From the NCBI GenBank assembly GCA_039182715.1, contig JBCDBY010000076.1, positions 1 through 16,034 on the forward strand: DNA of 16,034 bases, given 5' to 3'. This stretch comes from Planctomycetota bacterium (GTDB taxonomy: Bacteria; Planctomycetota; PLA2). The position numbers and the translations under genes are program-made. Below, in pieces: positions 2,193 through 15,085 of this stretch (position 1 is its first letter; every line of letters starts with the position of its first letter). The notes under the pieces were generated by a model that saw only the letters and a program-made list of their open reading frames with translations, made no database searches and was not told where the DNA came from.

Positions 2193-3131
2193 GTGCTGTG
2201 GGTCATCGTCAATCGGGGAAACCGAACGCCGTTGCGACGCATGCGCGCGTTTCGGGGCGGCGCGTTCGCGCGTCGCGTGCGACCGCTTCCGTTGGAGTCG
2301 ATTCGCCGCCGCCGGCGCCTGCCCGCGGGCGGCTACCTCTTCGTCGGTCACGAGACCTGGTCGTCGTCCGACCTGGCGCTCGGGGCCCGGCTCGCGCGCC
2401 GCATGCGGGAGGAAGGTGCGCCGGTCTGGAACGATCCGGGGCACGTGCTGCGCCGCTACGCGTTGCTGCGCATGCTGTTCGAGGACGGCACGAATTCGTT
2501 CAACGTCTACCGTGCCGACGAGCGGCGCGAGCCGACCCGGTGGCCGGTCTTCCTGCGCGGCGAACACGACCATCAGGGGCATCGCAGCGAGTTGCTGCCG
2601 GATCGGGCCGCCCTCGCCGCGGCGCTGCGCGAGGTCGAGGATCCGGCGAGCGCATTGATCGTCGAGTTCGTCGACACGCGCGGCGGCGACCGGCTCCACT
2701 CGAAGTGCGGCGCCTGCCGCGTCGGCGACGCGCTCTTCGCGCGCCACCGGATCTTCGGCGAGCACTGGATGGTCAAGGTGCAGGCCCACCCCGAGCCCGC
2801 GTGCGCGGAACGGGAACGGTCCTACGTGGCCTCGTTTCCCGATCGCGAGGCGGTCGCCTCCGTGTTCGAGCGGGCCGGCATCGACTACGGCCGCATCGAC
2901 TACACGCCGGTGGGGGATCGCATCGAGGTGTGGGAGATCAATACGAACCCGACGATCGTCGATCCGCCCACGCTCGCCATGAAGAGCCGCTGGGCCTTCA
3001 ACGAGCCGATCATCCACCGCCACTGCGATGCGCTGCTGGCGCTCGCCGAAACGGGCGAGGGCCGGAGCCCGGTGCCTTTGAAGGGCGTCGCGGGCGTTCG
3101 GCCGGGTTGGCGGTGGTGGGGGAAGCGTTGA
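2193..3131 (+). CDS. hypothetical protein with ATP-grasp-like motifs (TupA-like/sugar-transfer-associated ATP-grasp type)
   Basis: 312 aa from a GTG start. Motifs IVEFVDTRGGDRLHSKCGACRVGDALFARH and DYGRIDYTPVGDRIEVWEINTNPT resemble the central K/R and C-terminal E-x-N Mg-binding segments of ATP-grasp enzymes. Start codon uncertain; an alternative ATG lies at 2241. Confidence 0.55.
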   Translation: MLWVIVNRGNRTPLRRMRAFRGGAFARRVRPLPLESIRRRRRLPAGGYLFVGHETWSSSDLALGARLARRMREEGAPVWNDPGHVLRRYALLRMLFEDGTNSFNVYRADERREPTRWPVFLRGEHDHQGHRSELLPDRAALAAALREVEDPASALIVEFVDTRGGDRLHSKCGACRVGDALFARHRIFGEHWMVKVQAHPEPACAERERSYVASFPDREAVASVFERAGIDYGRIDYTPVGDRIEVWEINTNPTIVDPPTLAMKSRWAFNEPIIHRHCDALLALAETGEGRSPVPLKGVAGVRPGWRWWGKR

Positions 3132-3272
3132 ACGTTGAACGTTCGACGTTCAACGTTCGGGGTGGGAAGTCATCGGAGGTTTGGGTGGCTTGCACCGTGC
3201 CATCCAGGTTTTCGGCGGCTCCGATGACTTCCCGCGTTGAACGTCCCACGTCACACGTCGAACGTTCCACAT
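3122..3272. repeat. Heptamer-arm palindromic element, copy A
   Basis: Left arm 3129-3156 is TGAACGT TGAACGT TCGACGT TCAACGT, with the first unit containing the TGA stop of the upstream gene. The core is a perfect 15-bp inverted repeat, GGGAAGTCATCGGAG (3164-3178) and CTCCGATGACTTCCC (3219-3233), around a 40-nt loop. Right arm 3239-3266 is GAACGTC CCACGTC ACACGTC GAACGTT. It fills the whole gap between convergent stops (3131 and 3277). Confidence 0.7.
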
Positions 3273-3276
3273 TTCC

Positions 3277-4866
3277 CTAGGCCGCTTCCGGCTTCGGGTC
3301 GTCGTCCTTCTTCTTCTCGTTCCCGTCGTCGGCGCCCTTGAGCTTGCCGAAGTACTCCGGCATCTCGACGCCGCCGACGTCGCGCATCATCTGGAGCATG
3401 GGCGGCAGGGTGCCGCCGAGCCCGCGCAGGAAGTTCGCGGTGGCGTTGGAGCCGTTGCCGTCGCTGCCGCCGTCCCAGACGACGACCTTGTCGAACTTGA
3501 TGTTGCTGATCGCCTGCGCCGCGGTCTCCGACAGGTGGTCGAGGTGCTCGAGCATGAGCATCTGGAACGCCGCCTGCGCATCGCCGCACGCACTCACGAT
3601 CTCGGCGAAACCCTGACCCTTCTTCTGCAGGATCTCGAACTGGCCGCGCGCCTCCGCCTCGAGCCGGGCGTAGATCGCGGCCGCCTCGCCCTCCGCCTCG
3701 ATGCGGCGCTTGTCCGCCTCCGCCTCGGCGTCGACGACCATCTTCGCCTTCTCGGCGCGCGCAACCGCCTCGAGCGCGGCGCGCTGCTCCGCCTCGACCT
3801 TGGTCGCCTCGGCTTCGGCCGCCGTCGCCTGCGCCTCGTACTGCGCCTTGAGCACCTCCGCCTCGGCGACGCGCTTGCGCGTCTCGCCTCGCTGGTACGC
3901 CTCGGCGCGCTCGACCTGCAGCTCGGCATTGGCGCGCGCGACAATCGCCTGCGCCTCGTTCTCACCCTTGACCGCCTGCGCGTCCGCGTCCGCCACGGCG
4001 ACGCGCTTCTCGCGCTCCGCTTCGGCGACCTTCGCTTCCGTCTGGTTGCGGGCGGTCTCCTCGCCGACGCGCGCGTCGCGGTCGAGGTTGGCGACCTGGA
4101 TGACGCGCTCCTTCTCCGCCTCCTTCGTGCCGATGTCGCGGTTCTTCTGGGCGATCGCGACGTCGATGTCCTTCTCGCGGTTGGCGCGCGCGACGCCGAT
4201 CGCGCCCGACTTCTCCTGCTCCGCCACGTCGATCTCGGCCTGCTGGATGGCGGTCGCCGCCGCCTTGCGGCCGATCGCCTCGATGTAGCCGGAGTCGTCC
4301 GTGATGTCGGTGATGTTCACGTTGATCAGCGAAAGGCCGATCTTGCGCAGCTCCGGCTCGAGGGAGTCCTGGATCGAGTTGAGGAACGCGTCGCGGTCGC
4401 GGTTGATCTCCTCGATGCGCATGGATGCGATCACCTGGCGCAGCTGGCCGAAGATGATGTCGCGCGCCTGAGCCTCGATGTCGCCGGGACGCAGGTTGAG
4501 CAGGCGCACCGCGGCGTTGTTCATCGCGCCCGGGTCGGTGCCGACGGCGACCGTGAAGACCGAGGGCACGTTCACGCGGATGTTCTCCAGCGAGAGCGCG
4601 CCCTTGAGCGGAATCTCGATCTGCAGCGGTTCGAGGTCGAGGTAGGCGTAGTCCTGGATGAGCGGCCAGACGAATGCGCCGCCGCCGTGATGGCAGCGGG
4701 CGGCGTTCTGACCGCCGACCTTTCCGTAGACGACGAGCACCTTGTTGGACGGGCATCGCTTGTAGCGCTTGATCAGCAGGATCAGGAAGCTGAAGAACAG
4801 CAGCGCGAGAACGACGACCAACAGCACCGTCGGATCGGAGAGGTTGATCGCGAACAGGGACGGCAT
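3277..4866 (-). CDS. SPFH/band-7 flotillin-like protein (FloT/YuaG-like) with long EA-rich coiled coil
   Basis: 529 aa. N-terminal membrane hairpin (VLLVVVLALLFFSFLILLI), an SPFH domain, then an extended Ala/Glu coiled-coil region. An RBS AAGGAGAAG lies upstream of the ATG. Confidence 0.8.
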   Translation of the reverse strand: MPSLFAINLSDPTVLLVVVLALLFFSFLILLIKRYKRCPSNKVLVVYGKVGGQNAARCHHGGGAFVWPLIQDYAYLDLEPLQIEIPLKGALSLENIRVNVPSVFTVAVGTDPGAMNNAAVRLLNLRPGDIEAQARDIIFGQLRQVIASMRIEEINRDRDAFLNSIQDSLEPELRKIGLSLINVNITDITDDSGYIEAIGRKAAATAIQQAEIDVAEQEKSGAIGVARANREKDIDVAIAQKNRDIGTKEAEKERVIQVANLDRDARVGEETARNQTEAKVAEAEREKRVAVADADAQAVKGENEAQAIVARANAELQVERAEAYQRGETRKRVAEAEVLKAQYEAQATAAEAEATKVEAEQRAALEAVARAEKAKMVVDAEAEADKRRIEAEGEAAAIYARLEAEARGQFEILQKKGQGFAEIVSACGDAQAAFQMLMLEHLDHLSETAAQAISNIKFDKVVVWDGGSDGNGSNATANFLRGLGGTLPPMLQMMRDVGGVEMPEYFGKLKGADDGNEKKKDDDPKPEAA

Positions 4867-4892: not shown

Positions 4893-5453
4893 TCAGATGG
4901 CGATGACGTCGAGGGTCTGGTCGCCCTCGACCGACACGACGCGGATGCGCGCGCCGGACGGGATCTCGTCACCGTCGGTGCGCGCCGGGAACTCGAGCGA
5001 GCGCCCCTGGATCTCGATGGTCACCTTGCCCAGCCCCTCGTGCGCGCCGGGGATGCGCAGATAGCAGGTGCCGCTCTTGCCGACCGCGTTCTCGATGCGG
5101 ACGGTGCCGCTCGACTGCAGGTTGGCGAGCCCGCGCATGAGCAGGCCGACGGCGAACATGCCGGCGACACCGGACCCGGTCGCCACCGCGAGTCGTACGG
5201 GCATGGCGGGCGAGCGCTCCATCATGATGAGGCCGACCAGACCGAAGATCGCGGCGAAGGCGCAGAGCGCCTTGAACGAAAGCACGCCGAAGAAGACGTT
5301 GCCGTGGCCGACGGGATCGCCGTCGGTGTCGAGTTCCGGCCCGTCCATGTCGATGTCCGCTTCGCCGAACAGTCCCAGCGTCTGCAGGACGACCTGCACG
5401 AGCACGAGCACGCCGCCGCCGACGGCGCAGATGGTGTAGAGATTGGCTTCCAC
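4893..5453 (-). CDS. NfeD-family membrane protein (YuaF/YqiJ-like), partner of SPFH proteins
   Basis: 186 aa from a GTG start, with GAGGGAG 7 nt upstream. N-terminal TM segments plus a C-terminal OB-fold-like soluble part. Sits immediately upstream and co-directional with the flotillin gene, the classic nfeD-SPFH operon. Confidence 0.7.
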   Translation of the reverse strand: MEANLYTICAVGGGVLVLVQVVLQTLGLFGEADIDMDGPELDTDGDPVGHGNVFFGVLSFKALCAFAAIFGLVGLIMMERSPAMPVRLAVATGSGVAGMFAVGLLMRGLANLQSSGTVRIENAVGKSGTCYLRIPGAHEGLGKVTIEIQGRSLEFPARTDGDEIPSGARIRVVSVEGDQTLDVIAI

Positions 5454-5566
5454 TTCGTCTCCCTCACGTAATCGGTAACCTTTACTTCCGACAAACCGGC
5501 TCTATTCGCGGCTTTCCCCGCGCTTTTCCGCGCGCCCCGGCAAAGCGGGTATAAAGGTCTCACCGA
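5454..5566. promoter_or_regulatory. divergent promoter region between nfeD-flotillin operon and Kelch lipoprotein gene
   Basis: 113-bp gap between divergent start codons. It contains the AT-richer stretch ggtaacctttacttccgacaaa and a TATAAA hexamer (GGGTATAAAGG) about 13 bp upstream of the GTG at 5567. Confidence 0.35.
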
Positions 5567-7051
5567 GTGAGAGGACATGGCGGGGCGTTTCTCATCGCCC
5601 TCCTCGTCGCGTGCGGCGGCGGAGGTGGCGGAGGCGGTACGCCGTTTCGGGTGACGGGTTCGTCGCCGGAGACGGGCACCACCGAAGCGGACATCGACGT
5701 GCCGGTTCTGATCGTCTTCAATCGGCCGGCCGACGTCGCCACGCTCAACCAGGAGACGGTCCGCCTCGAGACGGCCGACGGTGTCCCGGTCGGCGCGCGG
5801 ATCCTCGTGCAGGGATTCAACTCCGCGGCGGTCAACGTCGAGCCGTTCGCGAATCTCGACGAGAACGTCGGCTATCGCGTCGTCCTCAGCGGGGTCCGCG
5901 CGACGGACGGCACCGCGCTGGCGACGCAGACCGTCTGTTTCGTGACGCGCAGCAGCACGCCGACGGTCCGGCCCGACCAGCTGCTCGATCTCGGCGACGC
6001 CCTGCAGGTTCCGCGCTTCCGCGGCGTCTCGATCCGGATGCGCGACGGCCGGACCGCGGTCATCGGCGGCTACTCCGACCCGCAGACCGCGACCGACACG
6101 ATCGAGATCTACGAGCCCACGACGCGCGGCTTCCGGCTGCTGACCGCGCGCCTCACCGTGCCGCGCGCCGAGTTCACGGTGACGCAGCTCAACGACCGGC
6201 GCATCGTCATCGCGGGCGGCGTCTCCGAGCCCGGCGGCGCGCCGCTGGCGTCGACCGACATCTTCGACCCGGGCAGCGAGACGGTCGCGCCCGGCCCGTC
6301 GATGAACATCGCGCGCCGCGAGCATGCCGCCAGCGGATTCTTCGGCAACGATCGCCTCGTCGTCTCGGGCGGCTTCGACGCCGACGGCGAAGCGCTGGAT
6401 AGCCTGGAGGAGCTGCGGGGGACGACCTGGGAGATCATGCCTCTCACGCTGCCCGAGCCGACCGCGCAGGGCATTCAGGTCGCGTCGCTCTTCGACCGCA
6501 TCTACTTCTCCGCCAGCAACCTGCTCGGCATCAGCGGCTACATCAATGCGGCGGGGGAGATGGTCACGCGTGCGGAGGGCGACATCCGCTTCCGCCCGGC
6601 GTACGCGACGCTCTCGAACGGCGACTTCCTGATCATCGGCGGCGATACACGTTCGATGGTCACCATCGACATGTCCTCGGGTTTGCCGTGGGGCGCCAGC
6701 AGCTTCCTCCGCGAACGGCGCGGCCTGCACTCCGTGACCGTGCGCGGCAACAACGGACGGCGCCTGCTGGTCGTCGGCGGCTTCAACCGCGCCGTGCAGG
6801 GAGAGCCTCCGCTCACGTCGATGGAGATCGTCGATGCGCTCGATCCGGGCCCGTTCGGCTTCCCCGACGCGGTCGCCTATCGTGTCGACCCGCTGCGTCT
6901 GCCCGTGCCGTTCGCCGGCCACGTCGGATTTAACGACAACAGCGGCCGCACGATCATCGCCGGCGGCGTCGGCGACGGCGTCGGTCCCCACTCGCGCCGC
7001 GCGATCATGATCGTCGACAACGCGAATTCGCTCACCGTCGACTGCGATTGA
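5567..7051 (+). CDS. Kelch-repeat beta-propeller lipoprotein with N-terminal Ig-like (SbsA/Big-like) domain
   Basis: 494 aa. Signal peptide with lipobox LLVAC followed by a Gly8 linker. Repeated Kelch-like blades (AVIGGYSD, IVIAGGVSEPGG, LVVSGGFDADG, FLIIGGDT, LLVVGGFN, TIIAGGVGDG). The TGA stop lies inside the first heptamer of repeat copy B. Confidence 0.7.
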   Translation: MRGHGGAFLIALLVACGGGGGGGGTPFRVTGSSPETGTTEADIDVPVLIVFNRPADVATLNQETVRLETADGVPVGARILVQGFNSAAVNVEPFANLDENVGYRVVLSGVRATDGTALATQTVCFVTRSSTPTVRPDQLLDLGDALQVPRFRGVSIRMRDGRTAVIGGYSDPQTATDTIEIYEPTTRGFRLLTARLTVPRAEFTVTQLNDRRIVIAGGVSEPGGAPLASTDIFDPGSETVAPGPSMNIARREHAASGFFGNDRLVVSGGFDADGEALDSLEELRGTTWEIMPLTLPEPTAQGIQVASLFDRIYFSASNLLGISGYINAAGEMVTRAEGDIRFRPAYATLSNGDFLIIGGDTRSMVTIDMSSGLPWGASSFLRERRGLHSVTVRGNNGRRLLVVGGFNRAVQGEPPLTSMEIVDALDPGPFGFPDAVAYRVDPLRLPVPFAGHVGFNDNSGRTIIAGGVGDGVGPHSRRAIMIVDNANSLTVDCD

Positions 7052-7249
7052 ACGTTCGATGTTCGACGTTCGACGCTCGACGTTCGACGCTCGACGCTCG
7101 ACGCTCGACGCTCGACGCTCGACGTCAGCGATGGAGAGGCATTGAGGGTGCGGGCGAAGGGACCAAGTTGGCGCGTTCTCGTCGCCGCATCCCTCCGTCG
7201 CCTTCCTTGGTGAGACGTCAAACGTCAAACGTCGAACGTCAAACGTTCA
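7049..7249. repeat. Heptamer-arm palindromic element, copy B (expanded left arm)
   Basis: Left arm 7049-7125 is 11 tandem 7-mers: TGAACGT, TCGATGT, then TCGACGT/TCGACGC units including 5 perfect consecutive TCGACGC. GC-rich core 7126-7212 with imperfect long-range complementarity (gcgatggagagg with ccctccgtcgc, cgaaggg with ccttcc). Right arm 7213-7247 is AGACGTC AAACGTC AAACGTC GAACGTC AAACGTT. Both flanking TGA stops (7049-7051 on plus, 7247-7249 on minus) lie inside the terminal units. Confidence 0.75.
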
Positions 7250-8371
7250 CAAGTCCCGCAGCGACGGATACTTGAACCGCATCCCGTCCTGGAACCAGCG
7301 CGGGTACTCGGACCAGCGGGCGGCGACGACTTCGATGTCCTCGCGGTCCGGGTCGACCTCGAACTGGCCGGGCACGCTCGCCTCCACCAGCAGGGGTACC
7401 TTCACCCATTCGCCGCGGCGCGAGGTGATCTTCCAGGCGCGGACGTCGTCGACCTCGTCCTCGGAGACGCGACGCTCGGCGACTTCGACGCCGGTCACGA
7501 CCTGGAAGAGGTAGGTGGAGATCGCGGCGATGTCGTCGGGGAAGGCGACGAAGGGCTCGTCGAACTCGTCCGCGAAGACGAACAGTCCCTCGTGGATCTT
7601 GCCGTAGACCTCCTCGCGCGGTTCCGCCTGGAAGAGCGCGAGGTCCTCCGCCTCGAGGCACTGCGGCAGCGTCTGCCGGTCGGTGCCGGTGAGCTCGACG
7701 CGCAGGTGGTAGCGCCAGATCGTGCGCGGGTAGTCCTCGCCGACCTCCTGCGGGACGGGCAGCGGCTCCGCCGCGAGCCGCTTCTCGCTCGGCTCGCGCG
7801 TCACCGTCAGCACGCGGCGTCCCAGCCGGCGCCGCTCGACGCGTCCCAGCCAGGCGAGGTTGAGTGCATTGACGGTGAAGTGGCAGGCGACGGCGGGCCA
7901 GAGCGAGCCGCTCTCCTCGCGCAGGACGCCCAGCGCGATGCCGGCGAGAAACGCGAAGATCGGATACCCCATCAGCGCGCGCGCCGGCACCGTGTGCAGG
8001 ATGCCGAAGAGAATCGCCGTGCCCATGAGGCCGAGGTGCGGCCAGAGCGCGCCGCGGAAGAAGAGCTCCTCGGCGAACCCGGAGAGGGCGGCGAGCAGCA
8101 GCGCCTGCGGGATCGTGATCGGGCCGAGCATGCGCGCCATCAGCATCGTGGCGCGCCGTACGGGCCGGAAGATCGCGTGGCCCGCGTGGCAGAGCGCGAC
8201 AATTGCCAATCCGATTGCGATGCCCTGCAGAATCGATTTCGTCGTCGCCGCCTGGTCGCCGAGCAGCAGTTCGGTGTGCCCGAAGACGCTCGCGTAGAGC
8301 ACCGATGCGACGATCACGCCCACGTAGAACGCGCTCGCGATCCGAATCAGTCGGTTGTTGCTCGTGCCCAC
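7247..8371 (-). CDS. CPBP-family (Abi/CAAX-type) intramembrane metalloprotease fused to a C-terminal soluble domain of unknown function
   Basis: All three CPBP motifs are present: FAEELFFRG, FGILH and HFTVNAL. A roughly 200-aa acidic, non-membrane C-terminal domain follows with no motif I recognise. The longest ORF runs to 8455 but would overlap the upstream gene by 77 bp. I place the start at the in-frame GTG at 8371, just after the upstream TAA and adjacent to AGGGG; the start is uncertain. Confidence 0.65.
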   Translation of the reverse strand: MGTSNNRLIRIASAFYVGVIVASVLYASVFGHTELLLGDQAATTKSILQGIAIGLAIVALCHAGHAIFRPVRRATMLMARMLGPITIPQALLLAALSGFAEELFFRGALWPHLGLMGTAILFGILHTVPARALMGYPIFAFLAGIALGVLREESGSLWPAVACHFTVNALNLAWLGRVERRRLGRRVLTVTREPSEKRLAAEPLPVPQEVGEDYPRTIWRYHLRVELTGTDRQTLPQCLEAEDLALFQAEPREEVYGKIHEGLFVFADEFDEPFVAFPDDIAAISTYLFQVVTGVEVAERRVSEDEVDDVRAWKITSRRGEWVKVPLLVEASVPGQFEVDPDREDIEVVAARWSEYPRWFQDGMRFKYPSLRDL

Positions 8372-8378
8372 GACCCCT

Positions 8379-9356
8379 TTACCTTCGCATGGACCAGACG
8401 AGCGGGTTCGGTGAGTTCTGCATGGACTCGAAGGAGTCGCGATCGACCAGTCCACGCCACCCTTCCGCGATCCCGATCTGCGCCACGATGGAGCCGAGCG
8501 AGTTGCCGGGGCCGGGGAGGTAGAGCAGATCGGGCGCGAATTCGCGGAGCGCCGTGAAGACCGACGCGGAGAAGTCGTAGGTCTCGGTCACCTGCGCCCC
8601 GAGCGTGTAATTGCGTAGCGCGGCGGGATCCGCGACGAACGGCGTATGCGTGTGCCCCGTACCGTCGATCAGCGGCGTGGCCGGCGCGCGCCAGTCGAGG
8701 GGCCCCAACTGCGCGGCGGCCTTGTCCGCAACGCCGGCGAGCAGCGGCGTGTGATACGGGCCGTGCTGCGCGAGCCGGATCGGGTAGCGACCCTTGCCGA
8801 GTTCCGCCGGGGGTAGATGGAAGTCGTCGAGTGCCTCGTCGGTGCCGGCGATGACGGCGAACCCGCCGAGCTTGATCGACACGAAGACGCCTTCCTCTTC
8901 GCAGTACAGGACCTGTCCGAAGCGGTCGTCGTCGAGCCGCCAGTCCTCGCCCACAATCGGATAGAGCACCTGGCCCCCGGCCGGCGCCTCCATCTGGAGC
9001 TGCGCCATCTCCTGGACGAGGCGGAATCCGTCGTCGAACGAGAGCGCCCCCGCGACCGTCAGCGCCGTGTACCAGCCCATGGAGTTGCCGGCCACCGCGA
9101 CGATCTCGTGTTCGGCGGCGGCGCGCTCCGCGTCGAGCAGGCTGTGCAGCCAGATGAGCGGGGAGACGTGGTCGGGACGCAGCTGCACGGCGGCGTCCCA
9201 CGGCGCGTCCCGGTCGAGCGAGACCAGCGACGGCAGGCCGCGCGCGGCGCGCAGCTCGTCGGCGCGCCGGACGAGCGGGTGGTTCGGATCGAGCGCGCCG
9301 CGCGTCTGCTTCGTGTAGGAGCCGCGACCGGGGCAGATCAGCACGATGCGGCTCAT
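8379..9356 (-). CDS. FabD-like acyltransferase (malonyl-CoA:ACP transacylase fold; nucleophile motif GNSMG)
   Basis: 326 aa from the ATG at 9356, overlapping the upstream TGA in ATGA. N-terminal CPGRGSY parallels the MCAT FPGQGSQ motif, and GNSMGWYTAL parallels GHSxGEYxAL. The 5'-extended ORF to 9869 is a low-complexity Arg-rich shadow overlapping the E1 gene. Confidence 0.7.
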   Translation of the reverse strand: MSRIVLICPGRGSYTKQTRGALDPNHPLVRRADELRAARGLPSLVSLDRDAPWDAAVQLRPDHVSPLIWLHSLLDAERAAAEHEIVAVAGNSMGWYTALTVAGALSFDDGFRLVQEMAQLQMEAPAGGQVLYPIVGEDWRLDDDRFGQVLYCEEEGVFVSIKLGGFAVIAGTDEALDDFHLPPAELGKGRYPIRLAQHGPYHTPLLAGVADKAAAQLGPLDWRAPATPLIDGTGHTHTPFVADPAALRNYTLGAQVTETYDFSASVFTALREFAPDLLYLPGPGNSLGSIVAQIGIAEGWRGLVDRDSFESMQNSPNPLVWSMRR

Positions 9357-11614
9357 GCGGTCACCTCGCGTGCGGCCGCCTCGATCTCCTCTTCGGAGAC
9401 GAGCACCATGGGGGCGGTGGGGCCGAGCGGGATGAACGTGTCGGCGCTCCGCACGGACCGCAGCTTGCCGTCGTATCCGCGCTCCGCCAGTCGGGCAAGG
9501 ATCGCGTCGGCCACGCCGCCGCTCGCGCGGCACTCGTCGACGACGACGATCGCCGCGGCGGTGCTCGCCTCGCGCTCGATCGCTTCCCACGGCAGGGGGT
9601 TGAGCCACCGCAAGTCGAGGACGCGCGCGTCGAGCCCGGCGCGCCGCGCCACGCGGCGACACATGCGCACGCCGTTGGCGTAGCTGATGAAGAGCAGCTT
9701 GCCTTCGCCGTGCACGCCGGCCTCGCCCGGTAGCAGCGCTTCGCCCTGTGCCGGGTAGTCGCTCAGCCAGCCCTGGTCGCCCGGCTCGTGCAGGTCCTTC
9801 TCGTGGTACAGCGCAATCGGCTCGAGGAACGCGATGACGCGGCCGTGCTCTTTCGCCATCGTCAGGCATCCGCGCAGCATGCGCACGGCGTCCTCGCCGC
9901 GTGACGGTGTCGCGACCACCATGCCGGGAATCTCGCGCAGCGCGGCGATCGCGTTGTCGTTGTGGAAGTGGCCGCCGAACCCGCGCTGGTAGGCAAACGA
10001 GGCAATGCGCACGACCATCGGATTGGTGAACTGGCCCACCGAGAAGAACGAGAGCGAGCTCGCCTCGCCGCGCAGCTGGTCGATCGCGTTGTGCAGGTAG
10101 GCGAGGTACTGGATCTCCGGGATGGGCAGCAGGCCCGCCTGCGCCGCGCCCTGCGCCACGCCGAGAATCGTGGTCTCGTCGAGCAGCGTGTCGAAGACGC
10201 GCGCCTGGCCGAATCGCTCCTGCAGCCCGGCCGTCACGTAGTAGACGCCGCCCTTGCGGCCGACGTCTTCGCCGAAGACGACGATCTCGGGGCGGCGGAG
10301 CATCTCGTCGGCCAGCGCCGCGTTGATGTGCGCCCCGAGCGTGCGCTTGGTCGGCGCGGTCGCGGCCTCCGGCAGTCGCCCGCGCCAGAGTTCCGCGCGC
10401 GCATCCACCTCGATCGGCTCACTCGCCTTGCTTCGACAGTCCGGGTCCAAGTCGAACGACAGCGGGATCATGACCCCCTCGCGGGAGGCGAGGTGACCAC
10501 GGCCGGCGGCTTCCGGCTCGCAGGCTTCGACGCGTGTCCGCGTGGTGCGCAGGAGCGTGGCGATCGCGCCCGGCGTCGCCGCTCCGCGCTCGATCAGGAA
10601 GCGCGCATTGCGCAGCAGCGGGTCCTGGTCCTCGACCGCCTCGATCTCCGGCAGCTCTCGGTAGGTCGTCTCCACGTCGGAGCCCGCGTGGCCCCAGAGG
10701 CGCACCGTGCGGAGGTGGAGGAAGACGGGGCCTTTGGTGGCGCGGCAGGTCTCGATGGCGAGACGCGTCGTCTCCCAGATCTCGTCCAGCTCGCCGTCCG
10801 CCTCGAAGTAGCGCAGGTGCCGCAGGCCGCTGAACGCGTCGTTGATCCAGCGGCGCGGCGTGCGCACCGAGATGCCGATGCCGTTGTCCTCGCAGACGAA
10901 GAGCACCGGCACCGGGTTGCCGCGGCGATGCGCGTAGCGGGCGGCGTTGATGCCGGCCAACGCGGTGGCGTGGTTCGCGGACGCGTCTCCGAAGCTGCAG
11001 CAGACGAGCGCGTCGTGCGGGTGGTCGTGGTCGATGCCCAGTCGCCGCGCGCGCCCGAGAGCGAACGCCATCCCGACCGCCTTGGGCAGGTGGGACGCGA
11101 TCGTGCTGGTCTGCGGCGGCACGCCGAGCGGTCGGCTTCCCCAGACCTTGTGGCGGCCCTGCGCGATGGGGTCGTCGCGACTCGCGCACAGCGAAAGCAG
11201 CGTATCGAACGTCGGCGTTACCGACCCCAAGTGGCGCGACCGCGCCATCATGAACCCGCCACTGCGGTAGTGCAGCAGCGCGGGGTCCGTCACGCGCAGC
11301 TGCGTGCCGAGCACGGCGTTCTGTTCGTGGCCGGCGCTGGCGATCGTGTAGTAGCCGACGCCGCGCGCCTTGAGCCGTCGCGCCGCCATGTCGAGCTGGC
11401 GGCTCAGCACCTGGTCCTCGAAGAGCGCGCGCGCCTGCGCCGCGGTCAGGGAGCTGCCGGGCCGCACCGGTTCGTGCGAGGCCAGCAGGTGCGCGGCGGG
11501 CCGCGCGGTGGCGAGGTAGTTCTCGAGGTTCTGCTCGACGACGGTGACGCGGTCCGGGGGCACGCGGCAATTATGCCGGGTGCGTCGAACAGTCGGCCGT
11601 ATAACCGGGGGCAT
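9353..11614 (-). CDS. TPP-dependent 2-oxoacid dehydrogenase E1 component, fused alpha and beta subunits
   Basis: 753 aa. The alpha half has TPP-binding GDASANH ... VLFVCEDNGIGIS. The beta half has a transketolase-like pyrimidine-binding region, EIVVFGEDVG...ILGVAQGAAQAGLLPIPEIQY, and a C-terminal domain. The TGA stop overlaps the acyltransferase ATG. Exact start uncertain: the ATG at 11614 overlaps the divergent YtoQ ATG within GCATGC. Confidence 0.8.
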   Translation of the reverse strand: MPPVIRPTVRRTRHNCRVPPDRVTVVEQNLENYLATARPAAHLLASHEPVRPGSSLTAAQARALFEDQVLSRQLDMAARRLKARGVGYYTIASAGHEQNAVLGTQLRVTDPALLHYRSGGFMMARSRHLGSVTPTFDTLLSLCASRDDPIAQGRHKVWGSRPLGVPPQTSTIASHLPKAVGMAFALGRARRLGIDHDHPHDALVCCSFGDASANHATALAGINAARYAHRRGNPVPVLFVCEDNGIGISVRTPRRWINDAFSGLRHLRYFEADGELDEIWETTRLAIETCRATKGPVFLHLRTVRLWGHAGSDVETTYRELPEIEAVEDQDPLLRNARFLIERGAATPGAIATLLRTTRTRVEACEPEAAGRGHLASREGVMIPLSFDLDPDCRSKASEPIEVDARAELWRGRLPEAATAPTKRTLGAHINAALADEMLRRPEIVVFGEDVGRKGGVYYVTAGLQERFGQARVFDTLLDETTILGVAQGAAQAGLLPIPEIQYLAYLHNAIDQLRGEASSLSFFSVGQFTNPMVVRIASFAYQRGFGGHFHNDNAIAALREIPGMVVATPSRGEDAVRMLRGCLTMAKEHGRVIAFLEPIALYHEKDLHEPGDQGWLSDYPAQGEALLPGEAGVHGEGKLLFISYANGVRMCRRVARRAGLDARVLDLRWLNPLPWEAIEREASTAAAIVVVDECRASGGVADAILARLAERGYDGKLRSVRSADTFIPLGPTAPMVLVSEEEIEAAAREVTA

Positions 11615-12056
11615 GCAGTGGCACGTCTACCTCTCCGGCGAGATCCACACCGACTGGCGCGATCGCATCGCGGAGGGCATTCGCGCCCGCGATCTGCCGG
11701 TCGTCCTGAGCGCGCCCGTGACCGACCATCCCGCCAGCGACGACTGTGGCGTGTCGATTCTTGGCGCGGAGGAGAAGGGCTTCTGGAAGGACAACAAGGG
11801 CGCCGGGGTCAACGCGATCCGCACGCGCACCCTGATCGAGAAGGCGGACGTCGTCGTCGTCCGATTCGGCGACAAGTACCGCCAGTGGAACGCCGCCTTC
11901 GACGCCGGCTACGCGTCGGCGCTCGGCAAGTCGATCATCACGCTGCACGGCGAGGAACTCACGCACGCCCTCAAGGAGGTCGACCGCTCGGCGCTTGCCG
12001 TCGCCTCGGAGCCGGAGCAGGTGGTGGACATCCTCGAGTACGTCATCCGGAAGTAG
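11613..12056 (+). CDS. YtoQ-family protein (nucleoside 2-deoxyribosyltransferase-like fold)
   Basis: 148 aa. MQWHVYLSGEIHTDWR ... VVVVRFGDKYRQWNAAFDAGYA matches my memory of the Bacillus YtoQ family, including size. The upstream in-frame GTG at 11544 would overlap the E1 gene and was not used. Confidence 0.6.
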   Translation: MQWHVYLSGEIHTDWRDRIAEGIRARDLPVVLSAPVTDHPASDDCGVSILGAEEKGFWKDNKGAGVNAIRTRTLIEKADVVVVRFGDKYRQWNAAFDAGYASALGKSIITLHGEELTHALKEVDRSALAVASEPEQVVDILEYVIRK

Positions 12057-12061
12057 GTGCG

Positions 12062-12201
12062 TGGGACGTTCGACGTTCGACGTTGGACGTTCGCGGCAGG
12101 AAGTCGGGCGGAGGGCTTCCTGGTTCTGGAACCCCGCGACCGGGGACGACTTCCGATCGCAGCCGAAAGTACGTCGAACGTCCAACGTCCAACGTGCGAA
12201 G
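12062..12201. repeat. Heptamer-arm palindromic element, copy C
   Basis: Left arm 12062-12096 is tGGGACGT TCGACGT TCGACGT TGGACGT TCGcgg. The core 12097-12168 carries nested inverted repeats: caggaag with cttcctg, ggttc with gaacc, ccccg with cgggg, and GGAAGTCG (12100-12107) with CGACTTCC (12147-12154). Right arm 12169-12196 is GTACGTC GAACGTC CAACGTC CAACGTG. It fills the gap between convergent stops (12056 and 12202). Confidence 0.7.
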
Positions 12202-12660
12202 TCAGGCCTCGGTGCCTTCGAAACTCCTCAGCCGGTGCATGTGCCCCATCAGCGAGGCGGTGCCGGCCATGCCGAGCCAGGCGAAGAAGTTCATGTTGCC
12301 GGAGAGGATCAGGCAGCCGGTGGCGATGATCGGATAGCTGATGCTTCCTGCTCTCGCCCGTGCGGCGACGACGCCGGTGATCGCGCCGCACGCGGCGGCC
12401 CAGACGAAGATCACGGGGCTGCGGAAGATCCCGAAGATGTGAATGAAGACGAAGCAGGCGACCATCTCGAAGACGAAGACCTTGTACGTGTAGTTCCGCC
12501 GCTCCGCGCGCTCGGAGCCCTGGCCCTCCTCCCGCCGCCACGCCTCGCGCATCTCCTCCTGTACGTGCGCCGGGAGCCCCTGGAAGAACTCGTTCTCCTC
12601 CCGCGGATCGTGGATCCGGTCCTCGGGGATCTCGTGCAGCGCCTTCTCCATGCATTCCAT
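12202..12660 (-). CDS. small two-TM membrane protein with charged N-terminal region
   Basis: The minus-strand frame is confirmed by codon-position GC: 20/20 G/C at third positions over 12241-12300, versus 10/20 for the overlapping plus-strand ORF. Start placed at the ATG at 12660 (MECMEKALHEIPEDRIHDP...). The next ATG at 12651 is equally possible. Upstream of 12660 the codon bias becomes ambiguous, so the 222-aa ORF to 12870 is not supported. Confidence 0.5.
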   Translation of the reverse strand: MECMEKALHEIPEDRIHDPREENEFFQGLPAHVQEEMREAWRREEGQGSERAERRNYTYKVFVFEMVACFVFIHIFGIFRSPVIFVWAAACGAITGVVAARARAGSISYPIIATGCLILSGNMNFFAWLGMAGTASLMGHMHRLRSFEGTEA

Positions 12661-12690
12661 ATCGGCATCCGGACGGCCGATAAGAAACCC

Positions 12691-13128
12691 GTGGATGAAC
12701 GGGTCGAACAGCTCCGGCAGGAGTGGCTCGCCGAACAGGCGCGCCGCGACGTCGCGGACGGGAAGCGGCAGCAGCGCAACCGCCGCAACGCCGTGCTCGC
12801 TGGGGCGATGATCGGCATCGTCTCGACGATGGTCACCGCGCAGGTGACGCGCCGCGCGATCTTCTGGCACTCGTTCCTGCTCGAGGCGCTCTTCGGCGCG
12901 ATCGCCGGCTACGTGCTCGTCCGCCGCGGCGCCGACCCGCTCAACGGCGTCGTCTGCTTCAGCGTCGCCTACTTCGCCGCCTGGCTGCTCCGCGCGCTCG
13001 GCCTCGACCCGTCCGTGCTCTTCGCCGCCGGCGACCTGCGCGGCGCGCTGATGATCCAGGGCAACTTCACGAGTCTCTGTCTCACCGTGGCCTGCGGCGC
13101 CGCGGTGGGGCAGGTCATGCGGGATTAG
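12691..13128 (+). CDS. small multi-TM membrane protein
   Basis: The plus-strand frame has 20/20 G/C at third positions over 12961-13020, and a hydrophobic C-terminus (AIFWHSFLLEALFGAIAGYVLV...VVCFSVAYFAAWLL). Start tentatively the GTG at 12691. An alternative ATG at 12808 is preceded by GGGG. The 5' part of the 377-aa ORF from 11995 is antisense to real genes and to repeat C and was rejected. Confidence 0.45.
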   Translation: MDERVEQLRQEWLAEQARRDVADGKRQQRNRRNAVLAGAMIGIVSTMVTAQVTRRAIFWHSFLLEALFGAIAGYVLVRRGADPLNGVVCFSVAYFAAWLLRALGLDPSVLFAAGDLRGALMIQGNFTSLCLTVACGAAVGQVMRD

Positions 13129-13360
13129 GCGGGGCCAGGAGCGAGGGGCCAGGGGCAGCGAGTGTCTTGTTGCCCACCTTCATTCACGAGTGCGCGCAGA
13201 CGCCCGTCGCTGCGCCACGCGGTCGCACTCCCGTCCACCGAAAGCTCTCCGCGAACTCCGCGGATCCTCCGCGCTCTCCGCGCTTAAACCCGACCGCAGC
13301 CGGAGGCCAACGACTCCGGCCCAGCAATCCGAGGCTGAGGGAGTCCTCCTCGCCCGCGAC

Positions 13361-15085
13361 CTACTTCGGCCTCCAGCCGTTCACGACCTTCTTGCTGAAC
13401 TCCTCGATCCGCTTCCCCAGCTCCTCCTCGCTCATGCCGAACGCCGCCTGGATGGACGTCTTGTCCTTCTGGCCGGTGTAGTAGTTCGTCACGTAGTCGA
13501 GCAGCGCGTCGCGGTACTTGCCGTTCTCGGCGTGATAGAGGTACGAGCACGCCGCACCCGACTGCTTGTAGAAGAGCAGCATCTCGCTCATGCCCATCGG
13601 GAACAGGTTCCACCGGCCCTTGTAGCGCGCCATCGGCTTCTGCGCGTCGACCTCGGTGTTCAGCTGCACCTTCGTGATGGTGAACAGCTTCTTCCAGTCC
13701 ATCAAGTTCTTCGCGCGCGCGATGGAGTCCACGGAGTCGAAGCTCATCATCTTCGGGTTGAAGTGCGCCCACTTGCCGCGATCGAGGTCGAAGCGCGTCT
13801 CCTGCAGGAAGACGGCCATGCCCTCGACGATCCAGACGCCCGGCGTCGTGACCGAGTCCTCGATCTTCGGCTGCTCCGGGCGCGACCAGCGGGGATTGCG
13901 CTCCTGGATCCAGTGGTGGGTCAGTTCGTGGACGAAGGTCTCCTTGACCGATTCCCACGCACCGGCCCGGTCGGGCCAGAAGAAGCGCGAGACGTTCTCG
14001 GACGGCACGTAGTGGCCCGCCGACATCGCGATCATCGGGTTCGGCGCCACGCCGCGTCCCATGCCCGAGAGCTCGATGTACTCCTTGCGATTCGCGTAAA
14101 GGTAGATGACGAGCGGATCGCTGTCCCCGCGCTTGGGGGCTTCCGTCTGCATCATCTTCGCCAGCGACTGCGCGGTGAAGCGCGCGATCGACACGCAGAG
14201 GCGCACGACGTCGGTCCGCTCCATCGGCGTGATGAAGACGATCTCGGATGTCTCCACGCCGAAGATCGGCTTCGACTCGAACTTGCCGGTGTCCGGGTTT
14301 CGCTGCGTCCAGAGCTGCTTGGCGCGCTCCATCTCCGGATGGCTCATGTCGAGCATGCGGATGCGGCCGAACTTCGACGGCAGCACGTCCACCTGCCAGT
14401 TGAGCCACACGCGCGTGCGCTCGCGCATCTTGGCGACCTGGTCCTTGCTGCGGCGGCGGCGCCGGCGGCGGCGACTGCCGGAGCGCGCGGCGCGACCCGA
14501 GGGGCCGACCTTGTCGAGCACCTTGAGGCCGTCCTCGTTCTCCGCGTCCGCGTTGAGCGCCTCGCGCAGCAGCTGCAGTCCGCGCTCCGACTCCTCGACG
14601 GCGCCGTTCGCCACGGCGCGGGTGGTGACGAACGAGGCGTACGCCTGGTCCGCGCCGAGGTCGAATTCGCCCTTCTTCTCGGCGTCGATCTTGGCGATCT
14701 TCGCCTTGAACGCGTCGAGCTCGTTCGGCTCGAGTCCGAGCCGGTCGCCCTGCTGCAGCAGCGCCCGCGCGGTGTCGCCCGCGCCGGCCTCGATCGCCTT
14801 CGTGATCAGCTCGCGGCAGCGCGTGCGCAGCTGGCGGTCGACGATGACGCGATAGGCGCGCAGCTGGTCGCGCAGCACCGGCTCGTTCTTGAGCTTGCCG
14901 GCGTCGTCCTCCCAGAGGAGCACGTCCGAGTTCGGCACGCTGCGGCCGGCCACCTGCAGGTTTTCGCCGCTTGCGGTTACCTCGCCCTCCAGGATCGTGC
15001 GGTCGCGCAGGACGACGGTGTCGCCGAGCGCGATCGAGGTGATCAGGAGCAGGCAGGTCAGTGAGTTCCGGTTTCTCGTCATCAT
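13361..15085 (-). CDS. secreted HEXXH zinc-metallopeptidase-like protein (gluzincin-type; signal peptide; internal Arg8 tract)
   Basis: 574 aa. N-terminal signal-like segment (LTCLLLITSIALG). HEXXH in FVHELTHHWI with a downstream Glu (VEGMAVF). Poly-Arg RRRRRRRR near residue 205. The ATG overlaps the upstream TGA in ATGA. Confidence 0.65.
   Translation of the reverse strand: MMTRNRNSLTCLLLITSIALGDTVVLRDRTILEGEVTASGENLQVAGRSVPNSDVLLWEDDAGKLKNEPVLRDQLRAYRVIVDRQLRTRCRELITKAIEAGAGDTARALLQQGDRLGLEPNELDAFKAKIAKIDAEKKGEFDLGADQAYASFVTTRAVANGAVEESERGLQLLREALNADAENEDGLKVLDKVGPSGRAARSGSRRRRRRRRSKDQVAKMRERTRVWLNWQVDVLPSKFGRIRMLDMSHPEMERAKQLWTQRNPDTGKFESKPIFGVETSEIVFITPMERTDVVRLCVSIARFTAQSLAKMMQTEAPKRGDSDPLVIYLYANRKEYIELSGMGRGVAPNPMIAMSAGHYVPSENVSRFFWPDRAGAWESVKETFVHELTHHWIQERNPRWSRPEQPKIEDSVTTPGVWIVEGMAVFLQETRFDLDRGKWAHFNPKMMSFDSVDSIARAKNLMDWKKLFTITKVQLNTEVDAQKPMARYKGRWNLFPMGMSEMLLFYKQSGAACSYLYHAENGKYRDALLDYVTNYYTGQKDKTSIQAAFGMSEEELGKRIEEFSKKVVNGWRPK

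Follow-up and report, generated by a model that had tools for sequence, protein, structure and literature searches.

The complete 16,034-nt contig JBCDBY010000076.1 of a Planctomycetota metagenome-assembled genome (MAG), here called the window, carries a palindromic element of 145 nt, copy C, between a YtoQ-family gene and a convergent gene for a small hydrophobic protein. Two further copies, A and B, lie at other convergent junctions of the same contig, to which all element counts given here apply. On balance, copy C is probably a copy, gained in this lineage, of a dispersed palindromic repeat that resembles repetitive extragenic palindromic sequences (REPs) and miniature inverted-repeat transposable elements (MITEs); its arms are made of heptamer simple sequence repeats (SSRs), and it would place a 3′-end hairpin on both convergent transcripts. 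As such it is a further example of a known and poorly understood class, the intergenic inverted heptamer-repeat palindromes. A first-pass annotation of this stretch had described copy C as one copy of a repeated element with heptamer arms, and the description was confirmed: Tandem Repeats Finder (TRF) detected a period of 7 nt in both arms (12065-12093, 4.1 copies; 12171-12195, 3.6 copies), and the half-elements of the three copies could be aligned with one another. The same annotation had proposed four hairpins in the core of copy C. Only one of these pairs, formed by GGAAGTCG and CGACTTCC and hereafter called H4, is part of the repeat element.

Copies A, B and C are built on the same plan. 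The arms are inverted in all three (inverted repeats I1, I4 and I14), and TRF also detected period-7 arrays in copies A and B. We aligned the left halves of the three copies with the reverse complements of their right halves, and all six half-elements aligned through the heptamers, a 7-nt linker and GGAAGTC(A/G)-TCG-GAGG. The half-element thus described is ~50 nt long and consists of (ACGTTSR)x4-11, the 7-nt linker and the inner motif GGAAGTC(R)TCGGAGG, or, in profile form, (ACGTTSR)n-N7-GGAAGTCRTCGGAGG. Because the GGAAGTC motif is aligned in all six, H4 is the conserved inner end of the inverted half-elements. As the first-pass annotation had noted for the stem common to copies A and C, GGAAGTC is found without mismatch in both halves of these copies (A_left, A_right, C_left and C_right). 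In three of these four it stands at the common 7-nt offset; in C_right it lies 16 nt after the last ACGT. The inner motif of copy B is degenerate, B_right reading GGAAGGC (a 6/7 match at the 7-nt offset) and B_left being decayed, so that H4 is conserved in four of the six half-elements and present in a one-mismatch version in a fifth (B_right). In addition, ACGTTNNACGTTNNACGTT occurs seven times in the window against an expectation of 0.00. Judged from the alignment, a shared motif at a fixed 7-nt offset is too specific for an independent origin and argues for a common one.

The copies differ in the extent of pairing and in what the arms enclose. The inner stem of copy A is a perfect 15-bp helix (GGGAAGTCATCGGAG, 3164-3178 with 3219-3233), of which copy C keeps only 8 bp. 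The arrays of copy B are strongly unequal (10.6 units on the left, including (ACGCTCG)x6, and 4.6 units on the right, by TRF), which points to later slippage in 7-nt steps. The centre between the inner motifs measures 54 nt in A, 42 nt in C and ~67 nt in B, and the three centres could not be aligned above shuffled sequences (local alignment, p = 0.2-0.99). Twenty-one alignment columns were Watson-Crick paired and invariant in all three copies. Column 51, in the arms, was compensatory across the three copies (A-T in copy A, G-C in copies C and B), and the 8th pair of H4 was compensatory between A and C (A-T vs G-C) and unpaired in B.

Each of the three copies fills a convergent-gene junction and lies flush with both stop codons, its arrays beginning 0-9 nt from these codons; the gene ends were confirmed by orthologous proteins that align to the last residues. 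The stop codon TGA of the 312-aa gene falls inside the first heptamer of copy A, in a reading frame confirmed by the ortholog, and both stop codons flanking copy B lie inside terminal TGAACGT heptamers. At copy C the YtoQ stop codon TAG (12054-12056) lies 1 nt before the element, and that of the small hydrophobic-protein gene (TCA on the + strand, 12202-12204) follows directly after it. Three of the six flanking genes therefore take their stop codon from a terminal TGAACGT heptamer (TGA at 3129-3131, 7049-7051 and 7247-7249), and since 3 does not divide 7, successive TGA-bearing heptamers give a stop in all three frames.

We then compared these junctions with syntenic contigs from five related lineages, which have the same gene order and a YtoQ protein 83-88% identical to that of the window. 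No such element was found at the orthologous junctions of these five lineages. At site C (YtoQ/next gene) the window has 145 nt between the genes, compared with 0 nt in contigs L121-L125 and L140, 6 nt in L128 and an overlap in L126; the next gene survives in L135-L139 as a decayed remnant within the gap. Site B (Kelch/CAAX) measures 195 nt in the window, 44 nt in L121 and 33 nt in L128, and site A measures 145 nt in the window and 45 nt in L121, where it is occupied by an ordinary GC-rich hairpin, AAAAAGGGCCGGCttgcGCCGGCCC. Because the relatives share the gene order and are without the element, A, B and C are insertions that this lineage acquired, each placed precisely between two stop codons. 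With the orthologous sites empty in all five lineages compared, they offer a clean case of a burst of heptamer-armed palindromes specific to one lineage.

A 5-bp direct repeat, GTGCG, was seen at both ends of copy C (12057-12061 and 12194-12198). Read as a target-site duplication, it would imply the empty site TAG-GTGCGAAG-TCA, close in size to the 6-nt spacer of L128. Copies A and B have no GTGCG-like end duplication, and that of copy C may be chance.

Folding of the whole elements gave minimum free energies (MFE) of −92.8 kcal/mol for copy A (z = −8.4), −103.2 kcal/mol for copy B (z = −3.9) and −76.9 kcal/mol for copy C (z = −4.5) on the + strand, and of −73.4 kcal/mol for copy C on the − strand (z = −5.0). 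On either strand the predicted structure is a single, long, interrupted hairpin comprising ~25 bp of paired heptamers and the 8-bp GGAAGUCG stem; in the MFE structure of copy C, the two arms are joined by helices of 6, 7 and 12 bp. The arrays can also pair locally with themselves, ACGT on ACGT plus wobble pairs. Among half-elements folded alone, A_left was better than shuffled sequences (z = −4.5), and C_left (0.11), C_right (−0.77), A_right (−1.41) and B_right (−0.80) were no better. According to these predictions, the significant structure is the long inter-arm hairpin and not the core.

Taken at face value, the hairpins described for the core, four in number and nested or alternative, would point to a novel switching RNA, and the first-pass annotation had raised such a conformational switch. 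The sequences are largely where it had placed them. Caggaag (12097-12103) and cttcctg (12116-12122) are exact reverse complements, and so are ccccg (12132-12136) and cgggg (12141-12145). Ggttc (12122-12126) and gaacc (12129-12133) are likewise exact reverse complements, but they cannot form a 5-bp hairpin as written because the loop would have only 2 nt (12127-12128). For the long-range pair, CGACTTCC had been correctly located at 12147-12154, whereas GGAAGTCG lies at 12099-12106, one position away from the 12100-12107 given for it. When the partition function of the full element was calculated, H4 formed with P = 0.99, whereas caggaag/cttcctg and ggttc/gaacc had P ~0 and ccccg/cgggg had P = 0.01; forcing alternative pairings in copy C costs 2.6-4.8 kcal/mol. 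The 72-nt core (12094-12165) contains 3 perfect inverted repeats (arms ≥5 nt, loop ≥3 nt), compared with 3.04 ± 1.6 in dinucleotide shuffles (P = 0.61). Its longest inverted-repeat arm is 8 nt (P = 0.05 vs shuffles), and two of its arms reach at least 7 nt (P = 0.02), both of them built on the GGAAG motif. Folded alone, the core was no more stable than shuffled sequence (z = −0.46 on the + strand, −1.24 on the − strand), and the inner 40 nt of copy C folded at chance (z = +0.06 and −0.71, respectively). All in all, these results indicate that the three small core hairpins (H1-H3) do not exceed chance and lie in the part of copy C that is not conserved.

The centres are not homologous among A, B and C, and therefore H1-H3 are not a family feature and their covariation cannot be assessed. 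In the covariation check that the first-pass annotation had proposed, three of its four pairings thus fail, while H4 has its conservation in four of six half-elements and one compensatory change. That the core is a structured RNA or DNA toggling between mutually exclusive hairpins, as a riboswitch or attenuator does, is a reading to which we give hardly any credence. It can draw on the competition of caggaag/cttcctg and GGAAGTCG/CGACTTCC for one GGAAG, on the fact that two arms of at least 7 nt within 72 nt are uncommon in shuffles, and on the possibility that the local pair forms first as transcription proceeds. However, the core folds at chance, the alternatives are rare and costly, ggttc/gaacc has its 2-nt loop, the centre of copy C is not kept in A or B, the element lies at gene 3′ ends and not in a leader, and Rfam gave no credible match, even at E ≤ 5. 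The evidence points to a repeat element, and a false lead is thereby avoided. Rfam 15 returned 0 matches at gathering score for the window elements; at E ≤ 5 the sole match was a spurious plant miRNA-precursor on copy B, with 23 bits against a gathering score of 79. No tRNA genes were found in the window, and no promoter-like sites were called at A, B or C. Retron, CRISPR, tRNA, tmRNA and Rfam families were considered as identities for the element and rejected.

A function of the element as a 3′-end hairpin is suggested by analogy with REPs. Both convergent transcripts would end in, or enter, a long hairpin that starts 1 nt past the stop codon, and this hairpin could mark and protect the 3′ ends of both messenger RNAs and limit read-through into the opposite gene. 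The architecture, the homology of the half-elements, the folding energies, the position and the absence from relatives rest on direct observation; transcription of the element, any influence on termination or RNA stability, and the mechanism that mobilised it are inferred. The family may have originated by copy-and-insert dispersal of a common element, followed by slippage in 7-nt steps within the arms; dispersal is favoured over three independent slippages because the copies share a non-repetitive inner motif. Several observations weigh against this reading. The family is known from three copies only, all in one 16-kb contig, and no transposase gene or gene for a REP-associated tyrosine transposase (RAYT) was found among the window proteins. 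On neither strand is the hairpin followed by a U-tract (T-run), and a terminator scan of the window called 7 sites, a count not above shuffles, with none at A, B or C; the element is therefore not a canonical intrinsic terminator. The arm spacers contain mismatches (the arms of copy A, I1, are 76% complementary), a single arm column is compensatory across the three copies, and the change at the 8th pair of H4 is limited to A vs C. With these arm mismatches and few compensatory changes, selection for pairing is not demonstrated. Finally, YtoQ and the next gene are spaced by just 0-6 nt in relatives, which means that no hairpin is needed at site C and that a tolerated selfish insertion fits equally well.

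Such an insertion, selfish or neutral, similar to a MITE or to the paired REPs known as REPINs and of no function for the host, is a serious rival that we regard as possible rather than probable. Convergent junctions and stop-rich heptamers would minimise its harm, and TGA-bearing terminal units do supply the stops of 3/6 flanking genes; the element is lineage-specific and absent from the five related lineages, its arms are imperfect, and the inner motif of C and B is decayed relative to A. Nevertheless, the analysis revealed neither a transposase nor a clear terminal inverted-repeat end nor an unambiguous target-site duplication, GTGCG being the only candidate and possibly a chance one, and the three centres are unrelated, whereas typical MITEs copy the whole element. 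This explanation is also compatible with an action of the hairpin on RNA. A second rival has each element arising independently in place, by local heptamer slippage and template-switch palindrome formation, with no dispersal. It accommodates the over-representation of heptamer SSRs in many bacterial genomes, possibly through polymerase slippage (PMC4692102), as well as the unequal unit numbers of the B arms and the unrelated centres. We nevertheless hold it to be very unlikely, given that A, C and B_right share GGAAGTC(R)TCGGAGG, mostly at the 7-nt offset, and that an exact 7-mer at a fixed offset would match by chance at ~6e-5 per comparison.

The 7-nt-periodic ACGT array could instead be primarily a protein-binding array, with the hairpin as a secondary property. 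The protein might sit on DNA (a DNA regulator, a nucleoid protein or a recombinase) or on single-stranded RNA (a cold-shock, S1 or CsrA-type protein). ACGT is invariant, and the 3-nt spacers vary among units, arms and copies; arrays of ACGT heptamers are found across many phyla, and among the matches listed about two thirds lack an inverted partner; and other heptamer arrays have been suggested to bind proteins (PMC4679880; PMC2700814). But the invariance of ACGT across phyla is partly circular, since the search pattern demanded ACGT, no candidate protein was found, and the window genes are conserved in relatives without arrays. Moreover, other heptamers stand at equivalent junctions (GCGACTG in L128, GGGGCCA at 13131-13156), which indicates a general heptamer-slippage process. 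Taken together, we consider a protein-binding array quite unlikely. A lineage-gained, REP/MITE-like repeat with a 3′-end hairpin is the reading that we retain in comparing the element with known systems.

The likeness to MITEs lies in the size (145-205 nt), the terminal inverted repeats, the multiple copies, the internal tandem repeats and the restriction to one lineage with empty sites in relatives. Bacterial MITEs include Correia, ERIC and RUP elements, and a MITE of Porphyromonas gingivalis is said to contain a minisatellite. The element differs from them in that MITE copies normally share the whole sequence, whereas the centres here are unrelated, in that no clear target-site duplication is seen, and in having no known parent IS element. 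Bidirectional intrinsic terminators are GC-rich hairpins that lie between convergent genes and can form on both strands. The element resembles them in offering a both-strand GC-rich hairpin at a convergent junction, as does the ordinary example at site A of L121, but its hairpin is ~5 times longer, interrupted, repeat-built and without flanking A/U tracts. Integron attC sites are imperfect palindromes of 57-141 nt that directly follow a stop codon and carry the 7-nt core sites RYYYAAC and GTTRRRY, which some units of the element match (GTCCAAC, GTTGGAC, GTTGAAC). Identity with attC was rejected: the order is reversed here (GTTRRRY-like on the left, RYYYAAC-like on the right) and the units are repeated in tandem, the neighbours are syntenic chromosomal genes rather than cassettes, and no integrase domain was found in the window proteins.

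Like REPs and the structures built from them (bacterial interspersed mosaic elements and REPINs, GTAG- or CGTC-tagged), the element is dispersed, extragenic and palindromic, REPs occurring mostly as head-to-head dimers that fold into larger hairpins (PMC3733652). Its dispersal is REP-like in that the window holds three copies in 16 kb, all of them inverted dimers and all at convergent junctions; the REPs of convergent junctions (conv-REPs) lie <20 bp from the 3′ ends of both flanking open reading frames (ORFs) and are mostly inverted dimers (PMC3733652). Transcript-end protection or termination have been proposed as REP roles (PMC3733652). The REP unit is a compact stem-loop of 20-40 bp (stem of 5-13 bp, loop of 2-20 nt) with an unpaired GTAG or CGTC tag at one end. 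The unit here consists of ~50 nt of tandem heptamers, A_left being the one tested half that folded by itself better than shuffles, and no RAYT (IS200-like tyrosine transposase) gene is present among the proteins of the 16-kb contig. No single terminal GTAG or CGTC tag was found in the elements: CGTC occurs only within every right-arm heptamer, and the GTAG at 12053-12056 contains the stop codon of YtoQ and has no counterpart at A or B. A recent bioRxiv title reportedly presents REPs as regulators acting in 3′ untranslated regions.

Heptamer SSRs are over-represented in many bacterial genomes, and arrays of GGGAATC in Xanthomonas campestris and X. axonopodis and of GGGGAYT in Nostoc are a close precedent for paired ones, with ~186 GGGAATC arrays per Xanthomonas genome and 70-75 inverted pairs close to upstream ORF ends (PMC4692102). 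The present element has the 7-nt period (at least 2-4 units), the complementary second array nearby and the intergenic position near an ORF 3′ end that mark arrays of this type. It also shares with them tandem heptamers that are variable in number and most often ~4 units, a mostly intergenic location near the 3′ end of the upstream ORF (at a mean of 28 nt in their case), opposite-strand array pairs able to form stem-loops, and a position poorly conserved between related species (PMC4692102). The differences are that the unit here is ACGT-centred and cannot form G-quadruplexes, that a conserved non-repetitive GGAAGTC..TCGGAGG accompanies the arrays, and that 3/3 copies lie at convergent junctions, compared with 16% in Xanthomonas (PMC4692102). 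Arrays of TAACTGA in Beggiatoaceae, Cyanobacteria and Bacteroidetes (PMC4679880), and of GGGACCG x4 with paired MTYCTGA x5 in Geobacter metallireducens (PMC2700814), are similar in having 2-6 heptamers, many intergenic sites, abundant stop codons and a suspected regulatory role. TAACTGA arrays, however, are direct repeats just upstream of start codons, not inverted 3′-end pairs, and are unrelated in sequence; a single-stranded RNA-binding protein of the cold-shock, S1 or CsrA type was proposed for them (PMC4679880). Descriptions of paired heptamer arrays go back to about 2007-2015, and the ACGT-heptamer strings of these elements were not found in the literature searched. With its recognisable non-repetitive motif and insertions that can be dated, the present family could help to separate slippage from dispersal, and could permit testing whether such palindromes act as 3′-end hairpins in high-GC bacteria without U-tract terminators.

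The features of the three copies and the genes that flank copy C are collected in the table. Within copy C, the ACGT tetramers of the left arm start at 12066, 12073, 12080 and 12087, CGGCA separates this arm from GGAAGTCG, and 16 nt separate CGACTTCC from the right arm. The gene context given by the first-pass annotation, a YtoQ-family gene and a small membrane-protein gene, holds. P0001, annotated as 'MAG: YtoQ family protein [Planctomycetota bacterium]', matches the YtoQ protein of the window at 100% identity. The small protein on the other side is hydrophobic in its C-terminal half, by inspection of its translation, and a Pfam search with it gave zero matches.

Features of the three repeat copies and of the genes flanking copy C (window coordinates)
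Feature	Position	Strand	Description or context	Basis
Copy A	3120-3276		between 312-aa gene (2193-3131, +) and Band_7 gene (3277-4866, −)	inverted repeat I1, 59-nt arms
Copy B	7049-7249		between Kelch/Big_5 gene (5567-7051, +) and CAAX-protease gene (7247-8380, −)	TRF, fold, alignment
YtoQ-family gene	11613-12056	+	147 aa from M24	Pfam PF11071, E = 1.2e-65
Copy C, whole element	12057-12201		between YtoQ gene and small hydrophobic-protein gene	
Copy C left arm	12057-12093		GTGCGTG, then GGGACGT TCGACGT TCGACGT TGGACGT TCG	sequence read directly, TRF, pattern matches
H4 5′ strand, GGAAGTCG	12099-12106		conserved inner part of half-element, 7 nt past last ACGTT	
Copy C centre, non-conserved	12107-12146		40 nt; contains cttcctg, ggttc/gaacc, ccccg/cgggg	
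H4 3′ strand, CGACTTCC	12147-12154		exact reverse complement of GGAAGTCG	
Copy C right arm	12171-12201		ACGTCGA ACGTCCA ACGTCCA ACGT, then GCGAAG; inverted complement of left arm	TRF
Convergent small hydrophobic-protein gene	12202-12747	−	~181 aa	49% identity to L121 ortholog, aligned to last residue

Further arrays were sought outside the window. A scan of one genome per species with the pattern ACGTTNN x4, which is generic, returned at least 120 arrays from many phyla; those listed include arrays from Planctomycetota, Holophagae/Acidobacteriota, Chloroflexota, Verrucomicrobiota, Desulfobacterota, Nitrospirota and Bacteroidota, and no member of the GGAAGTC family was among them. A metagenome scan for three ACGTT units followed by N5-9 and GGAAGTC gave 6 loci, all unrelated and of lower GC, with GGAAGTC by chance. 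As no further copies of the family were found, a many-copy covariation analysis was precluded. Among the matches listed, 30 of the 94 arrays that are not self-complementary had an inverted partner (at least 15/18 bases, within 350 nt), for example those of L006, L016, L046, L083, L086 and L105. To assign the strand of neighbouring genes we used a GC-phase test (58 correct, 0 wrong, 4 no-call), since crude ORF-based calling was unreliable at high GC. By this test, among the same listed matches, arrays were adjacent to a gene 3′ end in 34 cases and to a 5′ end in 21, a weak excess, so that placement at convergent junctions is a rule of this contig only. The arrays listed followed no consistent arm order. 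The idea, taken from L046, that ACGTT always reads in the sense of the adjacent gene was rejected, L016, L006, L129 and L132 being opposite; the L046 junction itself proved co-directional and not divergent in the GC-phase analysis.

One wider interpretation is that ACGT-heptamer arrays, often inverted pairs around an arbitrary centre, form a cross-phylum class written or read by machinery that has escaped recognition. We consider this unlikely. Such machinery might be a transposase, a recombinase, or an RNA- or single-stranded-DNA-binding protein that measures a 7-nt register on the ACGT core, and the window elements with GGAAGTC..TCGGAGG would then be one active family of the class.

Some of the arrays in other genomes have features of their own. 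In Holophagae the spacers read TGA, TAG and TAA in turn (L003 7712-7736, L104 1029-1053), and the arrays of these two MAGs are followed by a shared GC-rich motif, ..CCCACCCGGAGCGAGGTGGGCGCG.ATGGCGGGCGTGCC.. (L003 7737-7800, L104 1054-1200). The motif occurs twice in L104 and looks like another family-specific inner motif on heptamer arrays. In L062 (2668-2818) one inverted arm is built of (AAAGCGT)n and the other of (ACGTTTT)n, so that RNA of the + strand pairs fully via one G-U per unit and the − strand has an A-C mismatch in every unit. This asymmetry could be a strand-specific signature at the RNA level or a transition spread through one arm by slippage, and copy B, with its ACGCTCG units, is the mirror case. 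Several different heptamer arrays abut, or are nested and inverted, in many intergenic regions of unrelated MAGs (for example L070 7467-7720, L043 1190-1300, L034 6520-6660, L061 3029-3095); in L070, GGGACCA and CCCTGAN surround an ACGTT array, and in L061 the units grade from GACGTTC through GACGTGC to GGCGTGC.

Repeats also occupy related junctions. In L128 (GCA_054873975.1), the Kelch/CAAX junction orthologous to that of copy B holds (GCGACTG)x3 between both stop codons (5436-5459), so that this junction draws unrelated heptamer repeats in two lineages. In L135 (5767-6020), and also in L136-L139, the small hydrophobic-protein gene after YtoQ is a non-coding remnant; the 133-aa gene is absent from L135-L139, and YtoQ faces a 577-aa gene across 254 nt. 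A fourth convergent junction of the window (13129-13360), between the 133-aa gene (ending at 13128) and a 574-aa gene (ending at 13361), measures 232 nt, compared with 45 nt in L121. Its fold was not significant (z = −1.5), and it contains GGGGCCA x3.7 at 13131-13156 and the 9-mer GCTCTCCGC x4.3 at 13244-13284. All four convergent junctions of the contig are thus enlarged by repeats.

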